Shown here: in pieces, positions 1,506 through 50,763 of the stretch
Layout: the number at the start of each line of letters is the position of its first letter
Position numbering within the stretch: position 1 is the stretch's first letter
IMG/VR virus record: IMGVR_UViG_2693429713_000009
Reading direction: 5' to 3' (one strand)
DNA from: a virus
Lineage: Duplodnaviria > Heunggongvirae > Uroviricota > Caudoviricetes
DNA: 64,000 bases
Position numbers and translations under genes: made by a program
The notes under the pieces: model-generated
What the model was told of the DNA's origin: nothing
Database searches by the model: none
What the model saw: only the letters and a program-made list of their open reading frames with translations

Positions 1506-2115
1506 GAATAATTATGTTCTTCTTAATTATGATGAGTTAAACGAAAAGGGGCTGGCAAAACTCGTCAAAGAAATCAGCAAAGGTGGTTACAAGATAGCGA
1601 GGGTGATCCCTGCAAGTAATGGCAGGAAGAAAGATGGGATCATGACGCGCACGTTTACCCTTATTGGTATTGATGAACAGACAATGGAAGTTCAGGTTAA
1701 CGATACCGGTGATATATCTGGGATCAAACTGAATGGTAAAACAGTACCATTCAAGCCAGTAAAAACAATGTCGGCTTTGGGGCAATCTCTTGCGGCTTTA
1801 TTTAATCGCGGAGCAACTTCTTTCCAGAAGTCATTAGCTCGAAAACTTGCTCGTGCAGCAAAAAATATTGATGACGGAAATAAGAAGCGGCAGGGAGTTA
1901 AATCTAACGCTCAGAAATTAGCTGAAGCGAAAGAATCACGTGATGCACTCCGTGAAGATATCGCTAATGCTAACGACAAACTGTCTAAACTCCAGAGCAA
2001 GTCAGACAAAGTAATGCAAGATACGGGTAACGTTAAAGCTGCCTTGTCTCAGGAAGTAGCTAAGACACGTGCTCTTAAAGAAGAAATCGCGCGCCTGGAG
2101 GATGAGCATGATTAA
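1495..2115 (+). CDS. Hdf-like Dar-operon protein
   Basis: ATG at 1495 preceded by AAGGAG; Lys/Ala-rich coiled-coil C-terminus; position immediately upstream of DarA-like gene. Confidence 0.45.
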   Translation: MSNKNNYVLLNYDELNEKGLAKLVKEISKGGYKIARVIPASNGRKKDGIMTRTFTLIGIDEQTMEVQVNDTGDISGIKLNGKTVPFKPVKTMSALGQSLAALFNRGATSFQKSLARKLARAAKNIDDGNKKRQGVKSNAQKLAEAKESRDALREDIANANDKLSKLQSKSDKVMQDTGNVKAALSQEVAKTRALKEEIARLEDEHD

Positions 2116-4063
2116 CAATCCTTTACGAATTAATATTCAGTCTACTTTTGCTGATACGATCCCCGGCTATATGCCAAGTCGCTGGTCTTCAGAAGAATTA
2201 AGCGAAGATGACCTGATTTTTGAGGCGGCGACCTTAGAAGATATTGAGCTTGCCTATATGGGCAATGAAATTCTGGTTGTGTCTGACGAAGCTATGTTTG
2301 AGTCCATAACTACAACCAGAATTCGGTTAGCTCAAACAATGCGAGCTTTCGTCCGTGCGCTGAATCGTGGCCTGAATGGTACGAATATTATGGCAGGGAC
2401 TGATGAAGCTGGGACCGATGAAAATGGACGTAATTGTATTGGAGGTGCGATTATCGGTCGTGTACGTCGGGTAGCTAATATCCCTGTTTTGACCGCGCAG
2501 ATACCGCTTACTGACGGGCAGAGTACAAGCATAATTTTCCACTCTCCAACAGCTGACGGGGCAAAAATAAAGAGTAACGACGAGCTTGTTGCATTTCAGT
2601 TTTTACTTAATAAGCGTAACGTAACTCACGTTGTCGCCCCGATTGGTGGGAGAGATGTTTCTTTAAGCCAGGTATGCCAGGCGCTATCTAATTTGATTGA
2701 GCGTAACAGCGAAAAATTTAAGAAAGCAAAAGAGCGCCAGGACAAAATGAAGGCAGATATTGAGAGTTATCTCAATGAAGCAGATAAACTGGCAGAAGAA
2801 CGGTCAATAATGATTGATCAGGTGGACGTTGCGCAACGTGGGCTGACTGAAAAGCGTGCTGCTCTTACGGAGATGCAAAAAAAACTTGATGCCCAGAAAG
2901 CCATCAACGAGGAATTACAAGAAAAACGCGATAAATTGTTGTCTGCTAAAGGTGAAAAAACGAAGGAACGAGCGTTTAGTGACCAGCTGCGACATGTAAA
3001 ACATAATCTTGCCATTGACGGAAAAACAGTGCTGGATAATGGCGCTGAAGTTAATTATGTCACGTCCGGCAGTGACAATTTCGTTACGATAGTAGCACCT
3101 GAAGGTAAATTCAGTATTGATGCCAGTGCTGTCAAAGGAGGCAGTTTGGCAGATGCTGCAACCAAATTACTTAAAGCCTACCGAGAGCATAACGCAGATA
3201 AATATAAAGTTGATGTGTTACCAGGCCAGCAGGAAGACTCCGAACCACCACAGACAGACCCCGAGACGAACCCAGTATCACAATCAGAAAGCCAAGATGT
3301 AGGTAAATACCACTATGCACTTCAATCTCGCCCGGCTGGTGTTGGTGCTGTGCCGGATGGAAATAAAGCCGTGCTTGATCGTCCTGACCAGGCTGATCAG
3401 TATTACGAATATGCTCGTCACGGTATCATTACGTATGACCGTAAACTGACAGATGAAGAAGTCAGCCAGTACGAGTTGCTCTATCTTCCTGATGAAGATG
3501 AGCTGAAAGATTTTGCAGACCAATTGGTTGCGTCCAGCATGTCGAAACATATTGATGGCTATGTGGACCTGTTTGGCAGTGACCTGAAAACATTCAAGGC
3601 GCAAGTGAAAATTCTTTTCCGCAAAGCGTTTCCAAACGTGGCGTATCCACTTAGTGATGGGGAGAACCTTTTCATTATGGACGTGTATAACGCCCTTCAA
3701 AATCATTCAAGCGAAGTAAAAATAGAGCATATGGTTGAGCCAGAATCACAACCACAACCACAACCACAACCACAACCACAACCACAACTACAACCAGCAC
3801 CAGAACAGGAGCCAGAAGAAACGGGTGAATCAGCAAGTGAAGCTGATCAGGAGGCAGATAAAGCACTGGAGTACCTGAAATCCGTGCCGGAGCAGTTTAC
3901 ATCCCGCGATCTGACGGTCATCAGTGCTGAACTTGATCATGTGCAGGAAGCAGCAAACGCTCTAATCAGTGCAGGTCGATACGACGAGAACGAAGCCACT
4001 GTTGGTGAAGCAGTTGACTACCTGATCAACATTCTGGCTGAAATTCAGCAGGGAGGTGCTTAA
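2102..4063 (+). CDS. darA: DarA-like antirestriction / internal head protein
   Basis: About 650 aa, size and operon position as in P1 darA; internal PQ repeat; overlaps upstream gene. Confidence 0.45.
   Translation: MSMINNPLRINIQSTFADTIPGYMPSRWSSEELSEDDLIFEAATLEDIELAYMGNEILVVSDEAMFESITTTRIRLAQTMRAFVRALNRGLNGTNIMAGTDEAGTDENGRNCIGGAIIGRVRRVANIPVLTAQIPLTDGQSTSIIFHSPTADGAKIKSNDELVAFQFLLNKRNVTHVVAPIGGRDVSLSQVCQALSNLIERNSEKFKKAKERQDKMKADIESYLNEADKLAEERSIMIDQVDVAQRGLTEKRAALTEMQKKLDAQKAINEELQEKRDKLLSAKGEKTKERAFSDQLRHVKHNLAIDGKTVLDNGAEVNYVTSGSDNFVTIVAPEGKFSIDASAVKGGSLADAATKLLKAYREHNADKYKVDVLPGQQEDSEPPQTDPETNPVSQSESQDVGKYHYALQSRPAGVGAVPDGNKAVLDRPDQADQYYEYARHGIITYDRKLTDEEVSQYELLYLPDEDELKDFADQLVASSMSKHIDGYVDLFGSDLKTFKAQVKILFRKAFPNVAYPLSDGENLFIMDVYNALQNHSSEVKIEHMVEPESQPQPQPQPQPQPQLQPAPEQEPEETGESASEADQEADKALEYLKSVPEQFTSRDLTVISAELDHVQEAANALISAGRYDENEATVGEAVDYLINILAEIQQGGA
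3747..3792 (+). repeat. (CAACCA)n hexanucleotide microsatellite inside DarA-like CDS
   Basis: About seven tandem CAACCA units encoding QPQPQPQPQPQP. Confidence 0.7.
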
Positions 4064-20790: not shown

Positions 20791-20832
20791 GTTTATTGCA
20801 TCTTCCGATACCGTCATCAAACTAATAAAATA

Positions 20833-20842
20833 TGTTAGAAAA
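20833..20842. promoter_or_regulatory. operator-like motif TGTTAGAAAA
   Basis: Upstream of 407-aa gene. Confidence 0.45.
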
Positions 20843-20855
20843 CTAATTTAACAAA

Positions 20856-25739: not shown

Positions 25740-26315
25740 ATGTTAATGGCGAACGATAACGCATATGCAGAAGAAGATCTCATTTTGAGTGACTTCATAG
25801 GGAAGCGGGAACGCTGGACCCAAAAGCGAGAGGAACTTTACGCCTCATTAGTTCGCAAAGGCGTCAATATCGAAACCGCACAGAGCGGCGATATGACAGT
25901 GGTAAGCGTTGGATTGCACGGTGTAAGCGTGTCAGCAATCAATCATGAGCCATACGTTGCGTTATCCGAGTCAATGGTAAGGTTAGTTAAGTTCCTGAAG
26001 TACACAGAAGCGAATAATGTAATCATTGGCAAAAAGAATATCCCTTTTTCCTCGGCTTTTTACTGGATGATGAAAGGGCTTGATGCCCGGCGGACATCAT
26101 GGCCTAAAGGGAGCTATATATCGATGTTCCGTGGCAGCATTGGCAGCAAAGAAAAGCTCTTCGAATTCTTGCCGGAAGAGGCATTCGATATTGTGGAAGG
26201 GTGCGATGTGATGGTGATGCCTCGCCTGGTAATGATGAATGGGGATTTACAGGCGCAGACAGACTGGTTTGCAACTGGTGTGGATATTATCGCGACTGAC
26301 TGGGAGGCTTTCTGA
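25740..26315 (+). CDS. hypothetical protein with DUF2829-like region
   Basis: 191 aa; SSAFYWMMKGLDARRTSWPKGSYISMF and C-terminal ATDWEAF resemble DUF2829. Confidence 0.4.
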   Translation: MLMANDNAYAEEDLILSDFIGKRERWTQKREELYASLVRKGVNIETAQSGDMTVVSVGLHGVSVSAINHEPYVALSESMVRLVKFLKYTEANNVIIGKKNIPFSSAFYWMMKGLDARRTSWPKGSYISMFRGSIGSKEKLFEFLPEEAFDIVEGCDVMVMPRLVMMNGDLQAQTDWFATGVDIIATDWEAF

Positions 26316-26707: not shown

Positions 26708-26727
26708 CGTTAGGTGTTTAATATTAA

Positions 26728-26737
26728 TTTTCTAATA
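26728..26737. promoter_or_regulatory. operator-like motif TTTTCTAATA overlapping TATAAT
   Basis: Variant of recurring motif fused to a -10-like hexamer upstream of Lpa-like gene. Confidence 0.45.
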
Positions 26738-26815
26738 TAATCATCTTTTTACCAGTCTATACAGTTTTAACATTCTCATTATCATCCCCTCGGTCATTTC
26801 CTGCCCGGGGGATTA

Positions 26816-27208
26816 ATGGAACAAATCAGCAGCGCAGAAATTGCGGATATCATGATCAGGGCTGACTGCTATCTGACAGTCACTGAAATTACCACTCTCG
26901 CCAAAGAAAAATACCCTCATCTCCATGTTTCACGAGTAAGTGTAACTAACATCATTCGTCATTTTGTTCGTTCAAGCAGGGCAATCTGTGAGCTGGATGA
27001 TCGTGTGTATCCACGAAAATACTGGCTACATGGTCTGAACGGATATCAGTTCAAGGTGCGCGGGCGCACGCCTGAATACGGTAGCTTACTGGTTAAAAAC
27101 TGTAGCAGGAAATCAGTCGAACAGGCGCGAAAAGAGCAACGAGAGCTGGTGGACATGGCGAATAAGCTGTGGAATGCCGCCGTTAAAAAGCGTGGTGTTG
27201 CTTTATGA
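26816..27208 (+). CDS. possible late promoter activator (Lpa-like)
   Basis: 130 aa immediately upstream of pacA with operator-controlled promoter, as lpa in P1; assignment by position. Confidence 0.3.
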   Translation: MEQISSAEIADIMIRADCYLTVTEITTLAKEKYPHLHVSRVSVTNIIRHFVRSSRAICELDDRVYPRKYWLHGLNGYQFKVRGRTPEYGSLLVKNCSRKSVEQARKEQRELVDMANKLWNAAVKKRGVAL

Positions 27209-28569
27209 GTCTGGTTAATTGGGAGGAGCACCGCGCCCGCTTTATAGCGTTGCGTGAAGAAAAAGGGATCACTGTAAAGGAATACTGTGAGGAGCATGGC
27301 CTTAGCTTCAATACAGCCAGAAAGCATCTCAATATGAAAAAAAATGAGGTGCGGTCGCAGGTAAAGACAACAAAAAAAAGCACCAAATCACCTGAAAAAA
27401 AACGGGCGGGAAGAGCAACAAAAAAGCTGGAAGAGGGTGCAGAAAAAACAAAATTTACAGAAATTGACAATTCGCAGGGCGCAGGTTCTTTCCGAAGTAT
27501 GCCGAGAAAGAAAACTTCGGATCATGAAAATAATGCAAATAATAACAATGAGATAAAAGAATCTGTCAGGAGATCATTGCGCGAAAAAATGGCGAAAATG
27601 ATCCCCGAAGAAGATAAAAGCGCCCCAAAAATTGAGGGATCTTCAGCAATGATCCCTGGCGGTGCTGTGCAGCGTGCCACATTGCCCACTACGAATGTGG
27701 CTCGCGATATGATGAAGAACGGCGCAGAAGAACACCTGCGGTTAGCAATTCAAATGGCGCAAGAGCGCGCACTTCAGTATCAAAGCATTGTTGATCAGGA
27801 GGCCGAACGTCTACAGGCGGAAATAGACGCCTTGGGCGATAAAGAGCCAGAAGGAATGCACCCTGGGCAGCGCCTTCTCGGTCTAATCAGTGACGCGGCC
27901 TACTACATGAATGATTTTATCAGTAGGTTGGCAGCTATATATCAGTCCGAACAAAAGCTGCGACAGGGGGATGAAAAGCTTCGTCAGAGCGCTCGCCAGC
28001 AAGCATTCAAAGAGGCTGAGGCCAGAGAAAAACTCGAATTAGCACGCCTACAGGCCGAACAGCGTGGCAAAGAGATTGAATATCGCATTGGCGCTGACGC
28101 ACGCGCTGCCAGAGTTATCGCCGCCGCTATACGTATGCGTGAGCGCGAGGAACTGGATGATATCGGTGTTGCTGAATACATCGAGCGCCAGGGGGTCAGC
28201 GTCCCGGCTATCCTCGCGGCGCGCGCGGCGAAAGCTATCACTCTTCTCGAACCACCTGTTTCTGACGTCAATGATGTTGATGATGAACAGCTGGACAAAG
28301 AGGCAAGGGAGTTTGCAACGCTTCAGGCTAACCATCCGCAATGGCTGGCAGAGCGCCGGGCGGATGTGGCAACCATTGTTGAAGAATTGGGGTGCGGAGA
28401 TTACGACCGCAATGGCGAGCGTAAAGCTGGAGAATTCGAGGCCAACGACGAAGAGCTGGATATTGACCCTTCGGCAACGGCTGAAATTTACGGTGATTAT
28501 GATGCATCTGATGCAGGGTATGACGCCGGAGATGATGATATCGCGATAGAACCGCCGGAGGATGATTAA
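27205..28569 (+). CDS. pacA: terminase small subunit PacA-like
   Basis: 454 aa, coupled to terminase large subunit; contains internal GATC-rich pac-like cluster. Confidence 0.65.
   Translation: MSLVNWEEHRARFIALREEKGITVKEYCEEHGLSFNTARKHLNMKKNEVRSQVKTTKKSTKSPEKKRAGRATKKLEEGAEKTKFTEIDNSQGAGSFRSMPRKKTSDHENNANNNNEIKESVRRSLREKMAKMIPEEDKSAPKIEGSSAMIPGGAVQRATLPTTNVARDMMKNGAEEHLRLAIQMAQERALQYQSIVDQEAERLQAEIDALGDKEPEGMHPGQRLLGLISDAAYYMNDFISRLAAIYQSEQKLRQGDEKLRQSARQQAFKEAEAREKLELARLQAEQRGKEIEYRIGADARAARVIAAAIRMREREELDDIGVAEYIERQGVSVPAILAARAAKAITLLEPPVSDVNDVDDEQLDKEAREFATLQANHPQWLAERRADVATIVEELGCGDYDRNGERKAGEFEANDEELDIDPSATAEIYGDYDASDAGYDAGDDDIAIEPPEDD
27520..27654. promoter_or_regulatory. candidate pac site (GATC hexamer cluster)
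   Basis: Five GATC-containing hexamers (GGATCA, AGATCA, TGATCC, GGATCT, TGATCC) within about 135 bp inside pacA, as in the P1 pac site. Confidence 0.45.
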
Positions 28570-30077
28570 TGGCTGGCGGGCGCAAGATTAAATGCGTCAC
28601 CAGCGATCCACGCTGGCGCGATATGGTAATCAAATACCGCTACAACTTTACCCAGGCTGTTGTCGATATTTTTGGGATGTTCCCCTCCCACCAGCAGCAG
28701 CAGATCATTCAGTCAGTGCAGGAAACGGGGAGTAGGACGACCGTCACGTCCGGACACGGAACGGGGAAGTCGTCCCTTACCGCGATGTTGCTGTTGATTT
28801 TTATGATCCTGTTCCCCGATGCCCGTGTCATCATTGTTGCTAACAAGATAGGCCAGGTAAAAACAGGCGTATTCAAATACGTTAAACAGTATTGGGCGAA
28901 TGCAGTTAAGCGTCATGGGTGGTTGCAGACCTATTTTGTCCTCTCTGACACCATGTTTTATGAGCGCTCCCGTAAGGGGATTTGGGAAGTTCTCTGCAAA
29001 GGTTATCGACTCGGCAACGAAGAAGCGCTGGCGGGGGAACATGCGGCACATTTGCTTCTAATTCTGGATGAAGCATCTGGTATATCTGATAAGGCGATCG
29101 GCGTAATGACCGGTGCTCTTACTGAAGAAGATAACCGGATGTTGATGCTATCCCAGCCAACAAGGCCAAGTGGTTATTTCTACGATTCGCACCATTCTCA
29201 AGCAAAAACCCCAGACAACCCGAAAGGGATCTGGACAGCAATTGTTCTTAACTCGGAAGAATCACCGTTCGTCACACCACAATTCATCAAGCAGAAGCTT
29301 CTGGAATATGGCGGGCGCGATTCTATTGAGTACATGGTCAAGGTGCTTGGTCAGTTCCCACGAGAAATTAACGGCTATTTGCTTGGTCGTGATGAATGCG
29401 ATCGCGCAGCTCGCCGCAAGGTGTTGTTGGAGAAAAACTGGGGATGGGTGGCAACGGCTGACGTTGGTAATGGGCGAGATAAGTCGGTCCTCAACATCTG
29501 CAAGGTATCTGGTCACAGGGATAAGCGGCGCGTTGTTAACTTTAAGGTAATGGAGATGCCTGGCACTATGGACCCATTGGCCTTTGCTGACTTCATATAT
29601 AACGAATGTACGCCGGAAAAATACCCGAATATAACAATCGCGGTTGATGCCGATGGTTTTGGTTCTGATACGTGTGCGCAGTTGGTGCGTCGTGGTGCGA
29701 ACCCGGTACGTATTCGGTGGGGAAAACCCATGTTTGCGAACAAAGACAGGGAGCGATTTGTTAATCAGCGTGCCTACGCAAATATTATGGCGCGTGATGC
29801 CATAAAGTCAGGGCGTATGCGGATAGACAGTGACCCTAAAACGGCAGAGCAAGCGTCAAAAATCCCCTTTTTACTGAATGAGGAAGGGAAAATGGCGATG
29901 ATGCGCAAAGAGCACATGCGGCAAAAGCTAAACATCAAATCGCCTGACCGATGGGATACCTACTGCTTCACTATGCTGGTGGACTATGTGCCTGCTAATG
30001 AAGATATTGGTGCCGAAATGGCAACTTTCCGAGATCAGGTTCTGGCGGATATCGAAATGCCAGATCTGGATATATAA
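28569..30077 (+). CDS. pacB: terminase large subunit PacB-like
   Basis: 502 aa; Walker A SGHGTGKSS, Walker B LLLILDEASG. Confidence 0.85.
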   Translation: MAGGRKIKCVTSDPRWRDMVIKYRYNFTQAVVDIFGMFPSHQQQQIIQSVQETGSRTTVTSGHGTGKSSLTAMLLLIFMILFPDARVIIVANKIGQVKTGVFKYVKQYWANAVKRHGWLQTYFVLSDTMFYERSRKGIWEVLCKGYRLGNEEALAGEHAAHLLLILDEASGISDKAIGVMTGALTEEDNRMLMLSQPTRPSGYFYDSHHSQAKTPDNPKGIWTAIVLNSEESPFVTPQFIKQKLLEYGGRDSIEYMVKVLGQFPREINGYLLGRDECDRAARRKVLLEKNWGWVATADVGNGRDKSVLNICKVSGHRDKRRVVNFKVMEMPGTMDPLAFADFIYNECTPEKYPNITIAVDADGFGSDTCAQLVRRGANPVRIRWGKPMFANKDRERFVNQRAYANIMARDAIKSGRMRIDSDPKTAEQASKIPFLLNEEGKMAMMRKEHMRQKLNIKSPDRWDTYCFTMLVDYVPANEDIGAEMATFRDQVLADIEMPDLDI

Positions 30078-31142: not shown

Positions 31143-31160
31143 TATTCCTACTCGATTTAG

Positions 31161-31170
31161 TTTTCTAACA
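31161..31170. promoter_or_regulatory. operator-like motif TTTTCTAACA in repressor promoter
   Basis: 19 nt upstream of repressor start codon. Confidence 0.5.
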
Positions 31171-31351
31171 TAAAATTACTATGACAAATTTATGTCGAAT
31201 AACAGAGTGAGTAAAGGATCGAACTGTGATTTTTTGTCATCAATTTTAGAAAACCAACTGTATAAACCACACTTCGCAAATTAAAGACCATGAAGGCAAC
31301 GTGTTACTGGTCAGAATCAATCTGTGATGGATTAAAAAAAATCGCCATTTT

Positions 31352-31385
31352 ATAACTTTAAATAATTGGCATTATTTAAAGTTAG
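31352..31385. promoter_or_regulatory. lox-like recombination site
   Basis: ATAACTTTAAATA-ATTGGCAT-TATTTAAAGTTAG: 13-bp inverted arms (12/13) around 8-bp asymmetric spacer, arm ends ATAACTT as in loxP. Confidence 0.7.
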
Positions 31386-31536
31386 GCTATAATCATGTGT
31401 AGATGAACAGTGTTGACATCACTGAAAATACGTGCCTCGAATCAAAGGCTTGTATTTTGAAAATTAACTTATAGCTACCCTGTCATTTTTATATTTTTCG
31501 CGTAGCGTCATCTGTATATAGAGGTCAAATAGTTTC

Positions 31537-32565
31537 ATGAGTGAATTAATTATCTCTGGCAGTTCCGGTGGTTTTCTGCGCAACATTGGCAAAGAGTACC
31601 AGGAAGCCGCAGAAAACTTTATGCGGTTCATGAATGACCAGGGGGCTTATGCGCCGAATACTCTGCGCGACCTCCGTTTGGTGTTTCATTCCTGGGCGCG
31701 CTGGTGTCACGCTCGCCAGCTTGCCTGGTTTCCGATCTCACCAGAAATGGCCCGCGAGTATTTTCTTCAGCTGCATGATGCCGATCTGGCTTCGACCACC
31801 ATTGATAAGCACTACGCCATGCTGAACATGCTGCTTTCGCATTGTGGCCTTCCGCCACTTTCGGATGATAAAAGTGTTTCTCTGGCTATGCGGCGCATCC
31901 GGCGCGAAGCGGCAACTGAAAAAGGCGAACGAACAGGCCAGGCTATACCGCTGCGGTGGGACGATCTGAAACTGCTCGACGTCCTGTTGTCCAGGTCAGA
32001 ACGGCTGGTGGACCTGCGCAACCGGGCTTTTCTCTTTGTTGCATACAATACGCTGATGCGTATGTCGGAAATATCGCGTATTCGTGTAGGTGATCTGGAC
32101 CAAACAGGTGACACTGTCACGCTACATATTTCACACACGAAGACAATAACGACCGCCGCCGGGCTTGATAAGGTGCTTTCCCGTCGCACTACCGCTGTGC
32201 TGAATGACTGGCTGGATGTTTCCGGGCTTCGCGAACACCCTGACGCAGTGCTGTTCCCGCCGATACACCGTAGCAATAAGGCCAGGATCACGACAACGCC
32301 ACTTACTGCACCTGCAATGGAGAAAATATTCAGCGACGCCTGGGTGTTGCTGAATAAAAGAGATGCTACGCCAAACAAAGGAAGATACCGGACGTGGACC
32401 GGGCATAGTGCACGCGTCGGGGCCGCTATTGATATGGCTGAAAAGCAGGTGTCTATGGTGGAGATCATGCAGGAAGGAACCTGGAAGAAACCGGAAACAC
32501 TTATGCGGTATCTCCGCCGTGGCGGCGTGTCTGTGGGGGCTAATAGCCGCCTGATGGATTCGTAA
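31537..32565 (+). CDS. cre: Cre-like tyrosine recombinase
   Basis: 342 aa; SWARWCHARQLAWFP and C-terminal GHSARVGAA closely parallel P1 Cre. Confidence 0.9.
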   Translation: MSELIISGSSGGFLRNIGKEYQEAAENFMRFMNDQGAYAPNTLRDLRLVFHSWARWCHARQLAWFPISPEMAREYFLQLHDADLASTTIDKHYAMLNMLLSHCGLPPLSDDKSVSLAMRRIRREAATEKGERTGQAIPLRWDDLKLLDVLLSRSERLVDLRNRAFLFVAYNTLMRMSEISRIRVGDLDQTGDTVTLHISHTKTITTAAGLDKVLSRRTTAVLNDWLDVSGLREHPDAVLFPPIHRSNKARITTTPLTAPAMEKIFSDAWVLLNKRDATPNKGRYRTWTGHSARVGAAIDMAEKQVSMVEIMQEGTWKKPETLMRYLRRGGVSVGANSRLMDS

Positions 32566-32572
32566 ATTAAAT

Positions 32573-32581
32573 TTCTAACAC
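32573..32581. promoter_or_regulatory. operator-like motif TTTCTAACA
   Basis: Between cre and downstream gene. Confidence 0.4.
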
Positions 32582-32638
32582 ATCTTTTTAGATTAACATC
32601 TTTGCTGTAAAGTACCCTCGCCTACTTAGGAGGGTGCT

Positions 32639-32983
32639 TTGCAGAGTCAAATCACGGAATCAAGACGCTTCAAGGTGGATGGTTACACCGTAACCTTCGC
32701 CGCTGGTGTTAAGAACAGTCATGCTGTCGTTGTGTTCGGCATCATGACCGGGCTTGAGGCCGTCCCTGTGTTTACCCTCGAAAAAAACTGGCGAAATCTG
32801 GCGGAAGCAGAAAGCTACGTCCGGAAAGTAACCATCATTGCCGCCGAAAAACTCCTGGCCCACTATCAGGAAAATTATCGCACTATGGTCGAGAAGATTA
32901 ATCTCGCTTTCACTCGCCCCACTACCGGCTTTATTGCACCGGATACTAATGCAGGTCGATATCCTGCAAGGGGGCGTCGGTGA
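32639..32983 (+). CDS. hypothetical protein
   Basis: 114 aa ORF. Confidence 0.4.
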   Translation: MQSQITESRRFKVDGYTVTFAAGVKNSHAVVVFGIMTGLEAVPVFTLEKNWRNLAEAESYVRKVTIIAAEKLLAHYQENYRTMVEKINLAFTRPTTGFIAPDTNAGRYPARGRR

Positions 32984-33456
32984 AAACTTATTACCCATCT
33001 CTGAATTGTTACCCATCTTCCTATCCAGAATTATCCGGGAAGCTGTTAGCTCTATTAGCTAAAGCACCTACGGAATGGTTTAAGCCAGTCGTTATCAATC
33101 CACACTTCCTGGATTACGGAACTGTTCGCACTCGTAACGAACTCAAAAACCTACTGGCGCATGGATTCATTCGACACCGTGCCGGGAAAGGCTATCAGTT
33201 AGCGATTGCGCCAGAAGAGGCCGTGCGGCTATTCGCATATCGTGACAGCCAGACAAAAGCTCGGGTAATAGCTCAAATACTTCATAACGGCAGCACCTAT
33301 GCCCGCCAGTTTGGCGGCGACACGTCGCAGTTCTTGCGGGCGGTGCGATCGCTGGAGGAGCAAGGAGTTATTGAAAGTTCCTGTCTTCCTGTTCCTACCG
33401 TTCCACATATCAAACGTCGGGTTTACACCTTCACGCAGAGAGCTAAAAAACAATGA
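32980..33456 (+). CDS. hypothetical protein
   Basis: 158 aa ORF, coupled. Confidence 0.4.
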   Translation: MKTYYPSLNCYPSSYPELSGKLLALLAKAPTEWFKPVVINPHFLDYGTVRTRNELKNLLAHGFIRHRAGKGYQLAIAPEEAVRLFAYRDSQTKARVIAQILHNGSTYARQFGGDTSQFLRAVRSLEEQGVIESSCLPVPTVPHIKRRVYTFTQRAKKQ

Positions 33457-33947
33457 TTTACGTAAAAGTGAAACGCCTACATCCGGCAGCAAAACTTCCA
33501 GCTTATGCCACCTCCGGATCGGCGGCGATGGATTTTGAGGCTGTTGAAATAAAACCATGCGTCGATAGCAATGGTGCAATTTCCTCAAGCTGGTGGGTGT
33601 ACACCGGACTGGCTATGGAGATCCCGCCCGGCTGGTGTCTGAAACTCTATCCGCGCTCCGGATTGGGCTGCAAAAAACATACTCGCCTGGCTAACTGCGT
33701 AGGAATTATCGACTCCGATTATCGCGGTGAAATCATGGCAAAACTGATTACTGATCCAGGCGGGGAAGTCGTTCGTCTCAAGCCTGGAATGGCTGTCATG
33801 CAAGGCATTTTTGAGCGTGTTGAACAAGTCTCACTAGTCGAGGTTGAGGAACTCAACGAAACGGAACGTGGTGCTGGTGGCTTTGGTAGCACATCGGAAG
33901 ACCACTTTGAAATCAAGCGCACACCGCTTCAGTACGCAAAGTTTTAA
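33453..33947 (+). CDS. dut: dUTP diphosphatase
   Basis: 164 aa; GIIDSDYRGE and RGAGGFGST motifs. Confidence 0.8.
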   Translation: MIYVKVKRLHPAAKLPAYATSGSAAMDFEAVEIKPCVDSNGAISSSWWVYTGLAMEIPPGWCLKLYPRSGLGCKKHTRLANCVGIIDSDYRGEIMAKLITDPGGEVVRLKPGMAVMQGIFERVEQVSLVEVEELNETERGAGGFGSTSEDHFEIKRTPLQYAKF

Positions 33948-33961
33948 GCAGAGGAAAGGCT

Positions 33962-34612
33962 ATGAATTACATGGCAACGAAAGAGCTTTTTAAGTTCCTT
34001 CCCAAATACAAAGCTCACAAAAACGTTAGTGCATCGAAAATCAAAAATGTTGTTATTTTCGGAGTAACTGATGCCCCACTTTGGGGCTGCATTGAACTCG
34101 TTGAACCAAAAGGGGCAACAGTTTGTGTTGACGCAATATTTTTACAAAAACACCGACCAAAAACTGGCGGGTATCTGATCGTTTATGAAAACGGTTATCT
34201 GTTCTATGCCCCGGAGAAACCATTTGAGGAATGCTATGGCCTGGTTAACGACGCCTCCGAAAATGGAACCACGGTCATCATTACGGATGACAACGGCGTG
34301 ATGATTAATATTACCGGGAGCGTAACTATTTCTGCTGGTGGTACCACTACCCAGCAAGAGGAAATCGACCTTGAAGCAGCCGACTTTTCTGATGCGCTAA
34401 TGTGGCTGAAAGAAGGAAAAAATGTAGCTCGACGCGAGTGGAAAGGCGAAAAGCAATTCTGCTGGTTAGTTCTCGCTGGGAGCGTCAATTTACACGACAT
34501 TCAGGTTCCTTATGGTGACCATTTCGTATTGAAAGATGCACAAAATATGGACAGCGTTTGGTTGCCGTCTGTTGATGATTTACTGGCTTGTGACTGGTTT
34601 GTAGTGGAGTGA
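33962..34612 (+). CDS. two-domain protein with C-terminal DUF2829 (Tad2-like) domain
   Basis: 216 aa; C-terminal FSDALMWLKEGKNVARREWKGEKQFCWLV...ACDWFVVE. Confidence 0.5.
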   Translation: MNYMATKELFKFLPKYKAHKNVSASKIKNVVIFGVTDAPLWGCIELVEPKGATVCVDAIFLQKHRPKTGGYLIVYENGYLFYAPEKPFEECYGLVNDASENGTTVIITDDNGVMINITGSVTISAGGTTTQQEEIDLEAADFSDALMWLKEGKNVARREWKGEKQFCWLVLAGSVNLHDIQVPYGDHFVLKDAQNMDSVWLPSVDDLLACDWFVVE

Positions 34613-34618
34613 TTTGAC

Positions 34619-35386
34619 ATGGAAAGCACCAAAACAATTCAATACCGCTTGCGTAATGGCCTGCTGGTGGCTGTTAACGCCGACATGTCACTGCCGTTTG
34701 ACACGATTGAACGCACTATCATGACGTATCTCGGCTTTAATGAAGAGCTGAATGAAGAGCATGGCGTAGCTATATGGAGTGATGCAGACAGCGGCGTTCG
34801 TCGTTACATCACCGCCAGGGGCAAAGACTACTCTCTGGAAGAACTGTTTGCCCTTGCGCAGTCTTTCGAATGTGTAGCATTAGACCTGTTTAATGATCCT
34901 GCTATAGCGCAACGACTTATACGCGAGCTTGGGCTATCCGTTACACCAATTATCTTTAAAAATGGCAGCCTGACTGGCACATGGCGCGTAGAACGCATCT
35001 CAAACTACCTTCCATATAACCGACAGTTAAATGGAGTAATCTCCGGCGTTAATCAGCCCGTAGCGTGTGAAAATGTAAACCTGGTTGTCGCTGTTTTGGC
35101 AACCGCATGTCGTGTTATCGGTTTGGCTAAACAGGCATTTATTCATTTCCCAAATGGTGCAGAAGGTAGCGCAGAGATTATCGCGTGTGATTTCGAATTT
35201 ACCTGGATGCTACGCGAATATCTGGACCAAACAGTGTTCCGCGCCGAAGAACTGGATATGTATATCACGTCAACGATTCCTGATGATGTGCGTGCTGAAG
35301 CAATCGCTACAGCAAGGGCCAAATGCCGTGCGGCGATTGCAGAGCAGGCCAAAGAAGAAGTTAAGGAAGTGGCAGATGGCGACTAA
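34619..35386 (+). CDS. hypothetical protein coupled to terminase-like paralog
   Basis: 255 aa; stop overlaps start of downstream gene (ATGGCGACTAA). Confidence 0.4.
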   Translation: MESTKTIQYRLRNGLLVAVNADMSLPFDTIERTIMTYLGFNEELNEEHGVAIWSDADSGVRRYITARGKDYSLEELFALAQSFECVALDLFNDPAIAQRLIRELGLSVTPIIFKNGSLTGTWRVERISNYLPYNRQLNGVISGVNQPVACENVNLVVAVLATACRVIGLAKQAFIHFPNGAEGSAEIIACDFEFTWMLREYLDQTVFRAEELDMYITSTIPDDVRAEAIATARAKCRAAIAEQAKEEVKEVADGD

Positions 35387-36470
35387 GAGCAATATTTATA
35401 AAGATCCGCGCTGGCTGTCGCTGGTGGAGAAATATAAAGACAATTGGGTTCTGGCAGCAAAAGAATTGTTTGATATTGATTTAAGCCACCAGCAACAACA
35501 AATTGTTGAAGCTATACAGCCCAATAATGCAAAAGCTACTGTCACCACTCCGCATGGGATCGGACGACCGCAAGTGCTTGCTGTTATTAGTACCCTTTAT
35601 ACGATTATGTATCCTGATTCCCGGACAGTAATTGTTTATCCAAAATCAAATGCTTGCAAAAAAGGAATTGTTGCATATGTGTGGCAATGTTGGGAGGCAT
35701 TACTGAAAAAACAACCTTTTATCATTGAGTATTTTAAGGTCGGTGATAGCGGTCTGATGTTCAATGAATTTTGGGGAATGTGCTTTTGTAACTACCGCCT
35801 TAACTATGAAGATAGCATTGCAGGTCACTACGCCGACCATCTGTTATTCATTATTGTGGATTCCGCACATATAAGCGATCGGGCATACAGTATTGTGTGG
35901 GCAAGCATGACTAGTGGTGATTCACGCATATTGCTCACTTCAATTCCGTCACCAGAGGAAATAGGATTTTTTTATGATTCTCATCATGGGCGTGCTTTAG
36001 CTGAAGATAATCCGAGTGGTGTCTATAAAGCCATTAAGCTGAGTGCTGAGGATTCACCATTTATTACCCAAGAATATCTTGATCATTTTGCCGAAAGGTA
36101 TGGCGGGCGAAATAGTGATGACTACCGTCGTATGATTCTTGGTGAGTTCCCTGGTATTAGGGAGGCTGTTCTTGAATCAGATATGCCGAAAACAATGCGT
36201 TTTTCAATGCCTGATGGCAGTGAATGGACAATGCCATTACGAGTGATAGCCAAGCATCATGCACAGCACCACGCCAAAAAACATGGCGTTACAACATTAG
36301 AGTGGTTGAAATCGCACACCATTCCACTCTTCACTGCAGATCACAATGCTATCGTTGAGTGGGCAAAAACAATTCCGTGGGGGAATGTCGCTGAATACGC
36401 CCACATGCTAAAACCGCCGAAAGACAGGCAAGAAATTAGCTGGCTGACAGCAGAAAAAATCATTGAGTGA
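35376..36470 (+). CDS. degenerate terminase large subunit paralog (ATPase motifs inactivated, nuclease domain absent)
   Basis: 364 aa; aligns with PacB (DPRW, HQQQQI, FYDSHH, EDSPF) but Walker A is HGIGRPQ and Walker B is IIVDSAH. Confidence 0.6.
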   Translation: MATKSNIYKDPRWLSLVEKYKDNWVLAAKELFDIDLSHQQQQIVEAIQPNNAKATVTTPHGIGRPQVLAVISTLYTIMYPDSRTVIVYPKSNACKKGIVAYVWQCWEALLKKQPFIIEYFKVGDSGLMFNEFWGMCFCNYRLNYEDSIAGHYADHLLFIIVDSAHISDRAYSIVWASMTSGDSRILLTSIPSPEEIGFFYDSHHGRALAEDNPSGVYKAIKLSAEDSPFITQEYLDHFAERYGGRNSDDYRRMILGEFPGIREAVLESDMPKTMRFSMPDGSEWTMPLRVIAKHHAQHHAKKHGVTTLEWLKSHTIPLFTADHNAIVEWAKTIPWGNVAEYAHMLKPPKDRQEISWLTAEKIIE

Positions 36471-36478
36471 TAGTAGAA

Positions 36479-36507
36479 AGCCCGCCTGGTTGAGCGGGCT
36501 TCTTTTC
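36479..36507 (+). terminator. intrinsic terminator
   Basis: AGCCCGC-N8-GCGGGCT then TCTTTTC. Confidence 0.55.
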
Positions 36508-36886
36508 AAATATTGGAACCATATAGTTCACGTAGTTTTTCCGCTACTGAAGATACGGGGATTTCACCAGTTGCAGCCCCCACCGCAAGTTCCACCAGCA
36601 CGGGAGAATCATATACCTGTATACCGTTACGGCGTAGAAATAGCAGCGCACTGTTTAGCGCGGTACGCTTATTGGCATCATTGAATATATGCCCTCTCGC
36701 TGTAGCCACCAGGTAGGTGGCGGAGACTTCGAAAAGGTCGGTGATCTCTTCGTAGGCAACTCTGGCCTGAACTCTCCCGATAATGGCCTCTGCCCTACCC
36801 GGATCTGACATTCCCGGCAGGCCGCCGTAGCGGTTTATATTCGCATCATGAAGCGCAATAAGTTCTTCCGGTGATATATGCCTCAT
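36506..36886 (-). CDS. doc: Doc toxin (Fic family)
   Basis: 126 aa near-identical to P1 Doc as recalled. Confidence 0.9.
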
Positions 36887-45142: not shown

Positions 45143-45184
45143 AATGCATACCGACTCTGTTTTGTTCCGATCGGTAAAATAATA

Positions 45185-45213
45185 TGTTAGAAAACTAAAA
45201 TCAATGTTCTAAC
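45185..45213. promoter_or_regulatory. paired operator-like motifs TGTTAGAAAA-N11-GTTCTAAC
   Basis: Intergenic between phosphatase gene and downstream gene. Confidence 0.45.
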
Positions 45214-49852: not shown

Positions 49853-50431
49853 ATGCAGAAACAGAGCTATTGGGAGAAACAGAGGCAAAAAGCCATGCAA
49901 AAATTGGCTGACCCGGCCTGGCGAGAGGAACAAAGGGCAAAGCGCCTTCAACAAGCTCAACGCCAGCAGCAGCGAGCGAGAGAAAAAGCCGCATCGCCTG
50001 AATATCGGCAAAAAAAAATTGAAAAAGCAAAGCAATATGACCAGCGGAGAAAAGAGAAAGCTGTATCCGCTCCGTCCAAAAAAACACGCACGTCACGCGG
50101 CCTGAAGGGCAGATCACTCACAGCCGATGAACGCCGGATACAGACCGCTATCGGTACTCTCCCCTGCATTGCCTGCCATATTCACGGGAAACATAGCCCA
50201 GTGGTATCCCTGCACCATATCTTCGGGAGAACGGCAGAGAACGCACATAAATATGTCCTCCCTTTGTGTAAATGGCACCACCAGTACGCAGCGCCAGCCG
50301 AGGTCCGAGAACAATATCCCTGGCTGGTCCCTGTTCATGCTGATGGAAAAATAGGCGGAAAAGCAGATTTCATACGGCACAATGCCGATGAAATGGCGTT
50401 GTATCAGATGGCGATTGAATTGATAAATTAG
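49853..50431 (+). CDS. ref: Ref HNH endonuclease
   Basis: 192 aa; LPCIACHIHG...SLHHI.GRT...LPLCKWHHQYAAPAEVREQYPWLVPVHADG matches P1 Ref as recalled. Confidence 0.8.
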   Translation: MQKQSYWEKQRQKAMQKLADPAWREEQRAKRLQQAQRQQQRAREKAASPEYRQKKIEKAKQYDQRRKEKAVSAPSKKTRTSRGLKGRSLTADERRIQTAIGTLPCIACHIHGKHSPVVSLHHIFGRTAENAHKYVLPLCKWHHQYAAPAEVREQYPWLVPVHADGKIGGKADFIRHNADEMALYQMAIELIN

Positions 50432-50440
50432 TTTTCTAAC
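50431..50440. promoter_or_regulatory. operator-like motif TTTTCTAACA
   Basis: Immediately after ref stop. Confidence 0.4.
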
Positions 50441-50763
50441 ATTTTAAGTTGAATTGTGAATTTCCCCGATGTACATTCACTACCGATTGGTACACCGGTC
50501 AACTTTTTGAGACAAACTGTTTAGTTTTTCGTATTATTGCCGCCGCCATACCTATGGCGGTGCAATATAGGTGGCTGAAAAGCCCCCGTTGACTCACGGT
50601 GTTCCAGCCTTTATTGCGCCGCCACCAGACCGTGGAACAGTCGATGGCGGCTCCGAAAGCAAGGAGTCACTACACTATGAACAACTACAGTCTTTTCCCA
50701 TCACTCGTCGTCCACCACTCACGCGATAATCTGCATTCTTTACTCGCGCCGGGGGTGTCAAAA

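Follow-up and report, generated by a model that had tools for sequence, protein, structure and literature searches.

Organization of the locus

The window (the whole stretch of 64,000 nucleotides that was analyzed) is a P1-related, D6-like phage-plasmid, and within it a paralog of the large terminase subunit PacB is the final gene of a compact seven-gene accessory operon, in the order cre-like, two small genes, dut, Tad2-like, isaA and paralog (Table 1). The cre-like gene occupies the position of the D6 cre homolog, which is adjoined by a 'rox' site in the D6 annotation. The operon is likely to start at the sigma-70-like promoter listed in Table 1. Scanning of the window revealed none of its recurring 17-bp operator-like motifs within 31200-36500, and hence none in the operon; the P1 C1 operator consensus gave 0 matches in the window, where it is another, 17-bp motif that recurs. 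The true pacA-pacB pair is located 5.3 kb upstream of the paralog, outside the accessory operon.

Table 1. Features of the accessory operon and of the terminase genes used as comparator.
Feature	Position	Strand	Basis or remark
Lox-like inverted repeat ATAACTTTAAATAA-TTGGC-TTATTTAAAGTTA	31352..31384	+	5' of cre-like gene; sole exact match in window
Sigma-70-like promoter TTGGCA-16-TATAAT, 11/12	31366..31393	+	Consensus scan
Cre-like tyrosine recombinase, operon gene 1	31537..32565	+	Pfam Phage_integrase, E 5e-17
Two small genes, 114 aa and 158 aa	32639..33456	+	phrog_1968, phrog_6669
dUTPase gene	33453..33947	+	Pfam dUTPase, E 5.6e-15
216-aa protein with C-terminal Tad2-like (DUF2829) domain	33962..34612	+	Pfam PF11195, E 1.2e-17
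isaA homolog, 255 aa	34619..35386	+	48% identity to P1 IsaA; phrog_2326, E 1e-133
Shine-Dalgarno AAGGAAG within isaA 3' end, 6 nt before ATG 35376	35363..35369	+	Read from sequence
Paralog gene, 364 aa	35376..36470	+	ORF list
Paralog ATPase-like domain, aa 1-262, hypervariable allele	35376..36161	+	BLASTP to PacB; Foldseek
Degenerate Walker A PHGIGRPQ (PacB GHGTGKSS)	35550..35573	+	Alignments
Degenerate Walker B HLLFIIVDS (PacB HLLLILDEA)	35838..35864	+	Alignments
Paralog C-terminal domain, ~100 aa, unrelated to terminase nuclease domain	36162..36470	+	
Terminator-like hairpin, then T-rich tail; 14 nt past paralog stop	36484..36499	+	
pacA and pacB, functional terminase as comparator (pacB, 28569-30077)	27205..30077	+	PacB motifs GHGTGKS, LDEASG intact

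Start site and coupling to isaA

The isaA and paralog reading frames overlap by 11 nt (ATGgcgacTAA) and are accompanied by a Shine-Dalgarno sequence, which bears out an earlier proposal that the paralog is translationally coupled to its upstream gene. The same preliminary description had likened the overlap exactly to that of pacA and pacB; both pairs are indeed coupled, but the pacA/pacB overlap is 1 nt (TAATG) and not 11 nt. Of the seven 364-aa-type loci examined, six kept a Shine-Dalgarno sequence together with an overlap of 8-20 nt, in both genomic contexts, the exception being a variant without the C-terminal domain that has a 10-nt gap in place of the overlap.

The correct start of the paralog is ATG 35376. 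Although 99 codons 5' of this ATG are open in the same frame, the ATG is preferred because this upstream open frame shrinks to only 2-12 codons in homologs, and the longer 461-aa ORF beginning at TTG 35085 was rejected for the same reason. A database record names a 438-aa version of this longer ORF 'terminase large subunit'. No frameshift or internal stop was found in the window's paralog and the gene is intact. Thus, both observations once proposed as evidence against a maintained, degenerate paralog, namely intact motifs after correct start choice and a frameshifted pseudogene, fall away, the motifs being degenerate from ATG 35376 and the ORF whole.

A pseudo-enzyme copy of the PacB ATPase domain

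Residues 7-259 of the paralog were aligned by BLASTP with residues 10-264 of PacB at 38% identity over 258 aa (E 4e-58), a similarity far above chance, and the best 25 PDB matches of the paralog in a Foldseek search were TerL structures (ATPase domains). In the Walker A motif, TSGHGTGKSS in PacB is replaced by TTPHGIGRPQ, with the lysine changed to Arg and the first Gly to Pro, while in Walker B LLLILDEASG is replaced by LLFIIVDSAH, with Asp-Glu changed to Val-Asp. The RNase H-like nuclease domain is absent, since the PacB alignment stops at residue 259 of the paralog and the last ~100 aa are dissimilar to the PacB nuclease domain. The alignment along the PacB ATPase domain, the degenerate Walker motifs and the missing nuclease domain, all noted in the preliminary description, were therefore confirmed.

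The phrog_5902 profile matched the paralog over its full length (E 2e-165, profile positions 2-358 of 359), and in an AF2 model high pLDDT was confined to residues 1-190. No useful match for the paralog came from Pfam, NCBIfam or PADLOC; with E values up to 0.1 allowed, PADLOC assigned neither the paralog nor IsaA nor the Tad2-like protein to any family, and PDB-sequence profile searches gave no match for the paralog, its C-terminal domain or IsaA. The paralog is a pseudo-enzyme copy of the PacB-type ATPase domain in which the fold and many flanking residues have been retained. It shares with PacB the N-terminal region, the 'QQ' glutamine, the motif III serine, the 'FYDSHH' block and the TerL ATPase fold. 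In contrast to PacB, the Walker A lysine, Walker B Asp-Glu and nuclease domain are all missing, and the gene does not lie beside pacA. Moreover, PacB is conserved, whereas the paralog is hypervariable, belongs to an accessory operon and carries an unrelated C-terminal domain.

The C-terminal domain and the IsaA partner

Fused to the dead ATPase domain of the paralog is an extra domain of ~100 aa, otherwise found in phage replication/recombination modules. In Cronobacter phage JK004, one homolog of this extra domain is a stand-alone 98-aa protein encoded beside a DnaB-like helicase gene. Another is the C terminus of a 471-aa protein of Xanthomonas phages (phrog_17928) that sits in a recombinase/exonuclease/SSB module. 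The AF2 pLDDT was <50 across the domain, and hence no claim is made for its fold. A natural 266-aa variant in the same operon lacks the domain and ends exactly at the domain boundary. The window contained no further copy of isaA or of the C-terminal domain.

The upstream gene had been described as unknown, and the two genes together as a degenerate pair of the pacA/pacB type. The upstream product is in fact a homolog of P1 IsaA (tblastn E 6e-66, with 48% identity across 88% of the query), the gene name standing for 'IS1-associated gene A'. It has no similarity to PacA and no HTH or TerS family match, by which a role as small terminase subunit was ruled out, and Pfam, NCBIfam and PADLOC yielded nothing useful. 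The AF2 model of IsaA had a pLDDT of 82.5; a fold search produced no informative match, and no nuclease or recombinase fold was found by structure comparison. IsaA and the paralog are not an obligate pair because many elements carry IsaA without the paralog. The isaA gene is non-essential in P1 (PMC10695390).

A hypervariable domain under purifying selection

The window was compared with its sister element L023. PacB and C1 are 100% identical between the two, PacA 99.4% and IsaA 98.8%, while identity drops to 65% for the paralog and to 74% for the Tad2-like protein, the rest of the backbone being 97-100% identical. Only two divergent patches were present, one at 34200-34650, which is the Tad2-like domain and the operon's second hypervariable patch, and one at 35350-36100. 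Within the ATPase-like domain the identity was ~53%, with a dS of about 1.5 (0.11 in the flanks) and a GC content of 41% (about 48% in the flanks). The ATPase-like domain, a hypervariable cassette, varies independently of the PacA/PacB with which it resides. The high dS in the variable domain shows allele exchange, rather than being proof of positive selection.

The earlier suggestion that the gene is kept under selection was upheld by dN/dS values below 1, at 0.26-0.40 for the ATPase-like domain and 0.13-0.25 for the C-terminal domain; those for IsaA were 0.08-0.18. The paralog ORF has also stayed whole in both the P1 and the D6 lineage at a divergence of ~50%.

Distribution and the wider family

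The paralog was present in 163 of the 790 PacB-carrying PLSDB plasmids, in full-length, intact form and always annotated as hypothetical (phrog_5902). In ~120 natural P1-type plasmids, isaA and the paralog were found between ssb and hxr, directly 3' of ssb and adjoined by the dar anti-restriction genes. The ssb-hxr slot is a known hotspot of variation (PMC6906374). In laboratory P1, isaA is followed by a segment comprising IS1 and isaB, which takes the exact position held by the dead paralog in the window and in natural P1-like plasmids. P1 isaB was ruled out as a remnant of the paralog as it bears no similarity to it, and the IS1 and isaB segment has replaced the gene instead of interrupting it and leaving remnants behind. 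The preliminary statement that P1 has no such gene is accordingly true of the laboratory strain but not of the ~120 natural P1-type plasmids. The paralog is also absent from D6. The P1 ssb promoter is C1-repressed, and the + strand of the P1-type locus showed neither a promoter-like nor a terminator-like site from ssb to isaA. A literature search found no paper describing the paralog.

P1-like phage-plasmids carry a family of Walker-dead PacB paralogs of the ATPase-domain-only kind, to which the window's paralog belongs. All 17 short PacB-like proteins were Walker-dead, and all 30 other PacB-like proteins (27 full-length, 3 shorter calls) were Walker-intact, with GxGK[ST]. Across the dead family, the Walker A lysine position is occupied by R, Q, H or E and the Walker B Asp position by V, T, A, M or I; in the alignments the catalytic motifs were lost in every member and flanking positions were invariant. 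A neighbor-joining tree placed the dead paralogs in two separate clades (bootstrap 190/200 and 197/200; joint monophyly 0/200), and the Walker-dead paralogs have at least two independent origins. The related dead paralogs of 244-268 aa are complete genes inside contigs. Their genomic contexts were recovered by exact look-up, a search of IMG/VR for these contexts having found nothing. Most dead paralogs have no C-terminal domain, and their heterogeneous neighbors have nothing in common with IsaA or with that domain. In a Citrobacter relative, the gene overlaps that of a Ref-family RecA-dependent nuclease by 4 nt and is thereby coupled to it.

Possible functions of the paralog

The paralog is predicted neither to hydrolyze ATP nor to cut DNA, and would be an implausible motor part without the C-terminal half of PacB. 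A protein so incapable of catalysis presumably must act by binding. Because it would be a binding-only protein encoded in a hypervariable cassette, has a Tad2-like neighbor and is dispensable in laboratory phages, the paralog may imitate the terminase so as to engage a partner that is external and evolves fast. To our knowledge, bacterial NLR-like immunity senses the large terminase more often than any other viral protein. We tentatively propose, from sequence comparisons, that the paralog could mimic the terminase stoichiometrically, its likeliest role being that of a decoy for immunity that senses terminases, a reading that we hold to be possible rather than probable. The likeliest partners would be host immune sensors that recognize the terminase ATPase domain (Avs1-3, Upx). 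Production of the paralog would precede that of late PacB, such that the sensors could be occupied or blunted, possibly together with IsaA, and loss of the ATP-binding site would strip away features that sensors use for productive recognition. The C1-repressed ssb promoter and the lack of a promoter-like site between ssb and isaA fit with early expression before the late terminase.

An isolated terminase ATPase domain suffices for activation of EcAvs2 and of Upx, whereas the features read by SeAvs3 are active-site residues together with bound ATP. EcAvs2 is also triggered by T4 vs.8, a terminase-ATPase paralog that stands alone and has intact Walker motifs; the authors of the vs.8 work considered that such proteins may be anti-defense factors (bioRxiv 10.64898/2026.04.30.721860). 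Circumstantially, the paralog has the traits of an anti-defense gene in being accessory, variably present, fast-diversifying and near Tad2-like or dar genes, although the Tad2-like neighbor amounts to guilt by association. Against a decoy, a paralog unable to bind ATP might not bind Avs2/Avs3 at all, and the C-terminal domain and the Ref-family nuclease partner point toward DNA replication/recombination. More speculatively, Walker-dead ATPase copies as a class may be recurrent mimics of a viral pattern, made early, that occupy or mis-assemble Avs1-3/Upx in an unactivated state, with alleles tracking the host sensors; about a fifth of PacB-type phage-plasmids carry the family. In a more remote variant, the P-loop, with its glycines and the adenine-contacting glutamine kept, would bind a nucleotide-type immune signal in the manner of a Tad2-like sponge.

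The preliminary description had offered two roles, a packaging regulator or a decoy against co-infecting phages. A decoy role is possible, with host terminase sensors as plausible targets as co-infecting phages. Were competing phages or satellites the target, the paralog would poison the packaging of related P1-like phages that superinfect the cell, by binding their small terminase subunit or by assembling together with their large terminase, its alleles matching the competitors. The N-terminal ~55 residues and the 'FYDSHH...NPxG...YGG' region common to PacB are possible protein-contact surfaces, the alleles are hypervariable in identical backbones, and the D6-type cre operon promoter is without an operator-like motif, so expression in the prophage state may occur. 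In the P1-type context, however, the gene would be silent in lysogens behind the C1-repressed ssb promoter; moreover, poisoning should extend to the resident PacB, with its 33-43% identity to every allele of the main dead clade, and literature searches found no precedent of a dead-TerL interference protein. We consider such a weapon unlikely. A rather doubtful role is that of an accessory to DNA replication or recombination, in which the dead fold would be a scaffold or DNA-binding module working with IsaA or a Ref-type nuclease and the C-terminal domain would dock on replication/recombination proteins. The phage neighborhoods of the C-terminal homologs (the JK004 helicase gene and the Xanthomonas phage module), the placing of the P1-type pair directly after ssb and the Citrobacter coupling are in keeping with this role. 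Yet most dead paralogs have no C-terminal domain and have unrelated, heterogeneous neighbors, IsaA has neither a nuclease nor a recombinase fold, and a housekeeping role leaves the hypervariable ATPase-like domain unexplained.

Regulation of the element's own packaging, by binding PacA or the pac site without cutting and so delaying or limiting pac cleavage, is improbable, and the decoy is favored over it. The paralog is related to the resident PacB and retains residues outside the catalytic center, but its ATPase-like domain is only ~53% identical where PacA/PacB are 99-100% identical, with no co-variation; P1 and D6 are viable and packaging-proficient without the gene, the partner IsaA is not PacA-like, and the gene lies in an accessory operon far from the lpa-pacA-pacB unit. 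Least credible of all is a functionless, decaying duplicate, as could be suspected from the lost catalytic residues, a 3' frameshift in the copy of phage vB_EcoM-813R1, the truncated variants and the absence from P1 and D6. This reading is already largely refuted by the selection data, with dN/dS well below 1 in both domains; the 163 full-length PLSDB copies, the translation signals kept at six of seven loci, the ORF that stays whole across the P1-D6 divergence and the 266-aa variant that stops exactly at the domain boundary in the same operon also speak against it.

Relationship to known systems

Like T4 vs.8, the paralog is an extra, ATPase-domain-only relative of the element's own large terminase that is encoded outside the packaging module. 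Unlike vs.8, which keeps Walker A and B and activates EcAvs2, every member here has lost both motifs; the family is one of phage-plasmids, and the window's subfamily has an extra domain and is coupled to isaA. Ksap2 is a looser analogue than vs.8. The packaging hijackers of satellites, such as SaPI Ppi and PICI Rpp, are small accessory proteins that bind terminase subunits without catalysis. They are not terminase homologs and target the small subunit, whereas the paralog is a terminase homolog for which a binding role is predicted here. With anti-defense sponges such as Tad2, represented by the Tad2-like domain encoded two genes upstream, the paralog has in common its operon, the pattern of one hypervariable domain within an otherwise conserved backbone, and a proposed stoichiometric mode of binding, but there is no relation between them in sequence or fold, and any ligand or target of the paralog is putative.

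The family amounts to a natural experiment, being catalytically dead, under purifying selection, hypervariable and absent from P1 and D6, the laboratory phages through which this phage group was studied. Phage-plasmids spread resistance genes in E. coli and Salmonella. If the decoy were true, it would be the first phage counter-measure that imitates the sensed pattern, while poisoning of rival terminases would, if true, be a new form of competition between phage-plasmids. P1 isaA also gains a context as the orphaned half of a two-gene cassette.

A selected pseudo-enzyme coupled to isaA

Both open reading frames of the preliminary description were borne out (Table), and its account of the PacB paralog was confirmed with small corrections. 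Alignment with PacB, the large terminase of the element, showed likeness to the ATPase domain over residues 7-259 (38% identity, E 4e-58), with Walker A reading TSGHGTGKSS in PacB and TTPHGIGRPQ in the paralog, Walker B reading LLLILDEASG and LLFIIVDSAH, respectively, and no resemblance to the PacB nuclease past residue ~260. Confidence in the structure model was limited to residues 1-190 (mean pLDDT 61), and its top PDB matches were the large-terminase ATPase domains of P74-26, HK97, T4 gp17, Sf6 and D6E.

The upstream gene, previously described as unknown, encodes an IsaA homolog (phrog_2326) that shares 48% identity with P1 IsaA and 97% with a protein of D6 whose annotation reads 'similar to P1 gene isaA', and that has no similarity to PacA. 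The annotated P1 isaA (320 aa, GTG start) extends ~56 codons further 5' than the conserved protein. The overlap between isaA and the paralog was present as claimed but did not equal that of pacA and pacB, being 11 nt vs 1 nt. A Shine-Dalgarno-type AAGGAAG lies 6 nt 5' of the paralog ATG at 35376, which is the correct start since the long open frame upstream is unconserved in homologs. Such a sequence and an 8-20 nt start/stop overlap were common to all six full-length loci compared, in both genomic contexts described below, while in a variant lacking the C-terminal domain the two genes are separated by 10 nt. The pacA frame encodes 454 aa from its first ATG, but the gene as called in the near-identical sister element begins 128 codons further 3' (326 aa), which leaves the true start of PacA uncertain.

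Codon alignments of seven loci (Nei-Gojobori) gave dN/dS of 0.08-0.18 for IsaA, 0.26-0.40 for the ATPase-like domain of the paralog and 0.13-0.25 for its C-terminal domain; the paralog is not a decaying pseudogene.

Features of the window and amino-acid identity to sister element L023
Feature	Position	Strand	Identity (%)	Remark
Tad2-like gene	25740-26315			DUF2829
lpa		+	100
pacA	27205-28569	+	99.4
pacB	28569-30077	+	100
lox-like site	31352-31384			ATAACTTTAAATAA-TTGGC-TTATTTAAAGTTA, upstream of cre-like gene
Promoter-like site	31366-31393			Strong; precedes cre-to-paralog operon, overlaps lox-like inverted repeat
cre-like recombinase gene
Tad2-like gene	33962-34612	+	74	216 aa, C-terminal DUF2829
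Divergent patch	34200-34650			Tad2-like half of gene
isaA homolog	34619-35386	+	98.8	255 aa
Divergent patch	35350-36100			ATPase-like domain of paralog
Paralog	35376-36470	+	65	364 aa
Terminator-like hairpin	36484-36499			3' of operon
c1-like gene		-	100	345 aa; position of PF27008 'P7 repressor C1'-tagged gene in sister loci
dUTPase			98.8
doc		-	99
phd, humD		-
TTAGTTTTCTAACATAA copies	20830-20846, 26724-26740, 31157-31173, 45182-45198, 50428-50444			Five more in window

A family of Walker-dead paralogs

Searched with a profile, 1.84 billion representative proteins yielded 1836 relatives, 47 of which were aligned for motif comparison. GxGK[ST] and [DE]E were present in 30/30 ordinary terminases (27 full-length and three shorter calls), and both motifs were lost in 17/17 atypical proteins (twelve of 230-268 aa, four of 364-366 aa and one of 444 aa). 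Every paralog homolog has R, Q, H or E in place of the Walker A lysine and V, T, A, M or I in place of the Walker B aspartate; motif-neighbouring positions, the QQ-motif glutamine, the motif III serine and an 'FYDSHH' block are invariant. Predicted catalytic loss is thus a family trait. When the ATPase domains were placed in a neighbour-joining tree (200 bootstraps), 15 dead proteins formed one clade in 190 replicates, a figure that long-branch attraction could inflate, two others grouped elsewhere in 197, and monophyly of all dead proteins was recovered in none, which indicates at least two independent origins.

The short dead proteins are complete genes within long P1-like contigs or plasmids, set in arrays of small unknown genes, after a radical-SAM gene or after a Ref-family nuclease gene. 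The last setting is that of Citrobacter freundii plasmid NZ_CP114569 (5336-6792), P1-like, where a 263-aa Walker-dead PacB-like gene occupies the ref-mat slot and overlaps by 4 nt the gene for a 222-aa Ref-family RecA-dependent nuclease, a different partner for the same kind of protein. Several PacB-like terminases of ~660 aa (e.g. Acinetobacter; matches P0183-P0194) contain a Hint/intein domain (PF05203), under the annotation 'Hint domain-containing homing endonuclease'; these appear to be intein-interrupted large terminases.

Residues ~262-364 of the paralog are conserved across the family, and the predicted fold has no confidence there. Relatives of this region are a 98-aa stand-alone protein, whose gene lies two positions 3' of one for a DnaB-like helicase in P1-like Cronobacter phage JK004 (4001-4297), and the C-terminal part of a phrog_17928 protein of 471 aa within a recombinase/exonuclease/SSB module of Xanthomonas phages (Tenjo, 1888-3303). 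The region is a small, uncharacterised domain tied to replication/recombination modules. It is modular, as the paralog locus also has a natural form of 266 aa that stops exactly at the domain boundary.

Genomic contexts and allele replacement

The region is 100% identical to Salmonella enterica plasmid NZ_CP028198.1 (92 kb), it is closest, among named phages, to the P1-related plasmid prophage D6, and the neighbourhood is typical for the P1/D6 group. The c1-like gene had no Pfam match at E up to 0.001. That P1 has no such gene held for reference P1, but not for P1-type phages MH422554 and MH445380, phage vB_EcoM-813R1 and many plasmids, in which isaA and a 364-aa paralog, 52% identical to that of the window, lie between ssb and hxr. 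This slot is a known variation hotspot, RD-2 (PMC6906374). The P1-type locus is 97.6% identical to reference P1 through the end of isaA and realigns at hxr, with IS1 and isaB of P1 (NC_005856, 5533-7244) in the exact place of the paralog (MH422554, 5995-7120); isaB is unrelated to the paralog. D6 has isaA and lacks the paralog, so a gene common in nature is missing from both laboratory models. A PacB-like match is present in 790 PLSDB plasmids, of which 163 carry a full-length paralog, annotated 'hypothetical protein' in the copies examined. In a Raoultella D6-like contig (5997-10744), the place of the paralog after isaA is taken by an insertion with arsD, arsA and arsC, which form a cluster for arsenic resistance, and with a sigma factor and an acetyltransferase, marking the end of the cre operon as a cargo hotspot.

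A sliding comparison of the window with L023 gave 94-100% nucleotide identity over 33401-36807 except for two patches. Identity fell to 53-85% in the Tad2-like patch, between backbones 97-100% identical elsewhere; in the ATPase-like patch GC fell to 41% and dS was ~1.5, vs 0.11 in IsaA and the paralog C-terminal domain. This pattern is one of allele replacement, independent of the resident terminase. Two Tad2-like ('Thoeris anti-defense 2-like') genes are present in the window, one in the operon of the paralog.

Genes from the cre-like recombinase through the paralog are tightly packed (overlaps or gaps <=73 nt), and the -35 hexamer of the operon's best promoter-like site comes from the lox-like spacer. 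A 17-bp motif, TTAGTTTTCTAACATAA, occurred 10 times in the window (0.22 expected, up to 3 mismatches). One copy adjoins the c1-like gene start and another lies upstream of lpa, suggesting that the motif is probably the operator of the element's C1-type repressor; no copy lies within the cre-to-paralog operon, and the P1 operator consensus had no match in the window. In the P1-type context no promoter-like or terminator-like site separates ssb from the isaA-paralog pair, and the ssb promoters of P1 overlap a C1 operator. Together with the operon signals, this makes early expression plausible in both contexts.

Possible functions

The paralog is an intact pseudo-enzyme under selection, derived from the ATPase domain of a terminase. 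An accessory and hypervariable gene, it is coupled to isaA and belongs to a larger family of such dead proteins. It would act by binding, probably to a target external to the element. The reading ranked first, if tentatively, is that it may be a decoy for terminase-sensing immunity, given published terminase sensing by Avs and Upx and the hypervariable Tad2-like domain in the same operon. An isolated terminase ATPase domain suffices to activate EcAvs2 and Upx, and SeAvs3 senses active-site residues and bound ATP. EcAvs2 is also triggered by T4 vs.8, a terminase-ATPase paralog that stands alone and keeps its Walker motifs intact; the authors raise the possibility that vs.8-type proteins are anti-defence factors (bioRxiv 10.64898/2026.04.30.721860; PMC11564622).

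Replacement independent of the resident terminase argues for a partner varying outside the element and against adaptation of the paralog to the PacA and PacB encoded alongside it. Regulation of its own packaging, proposed earlier, is accordingly improbable as a role; interference with the terminases of rival phages is a likelier alternative, if still an unlikely one. Between these two would stand a rather doubtful role as a replication or recombination accessory, the modules in which C-terminal domain relatives occur. Functionless decay, seen sporadically as a frameshift near the 3' end in phage 813R1, would be the least probable reading. A share of the probability similar to that of interference with rival phages is assigned to none of these readings.

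Both genes are already known as database hypothetical proteins (phrog_5902, phrog_2326), and isaA is a name without a function. Literature searches found no description of the dead-terminase nature, hypervariability or recurrence of the family, and no account of why the paralog is absent from P1. The nearest described protein is T4 vs.8, which keeps the catalytic motifs that the paralog family has lost.
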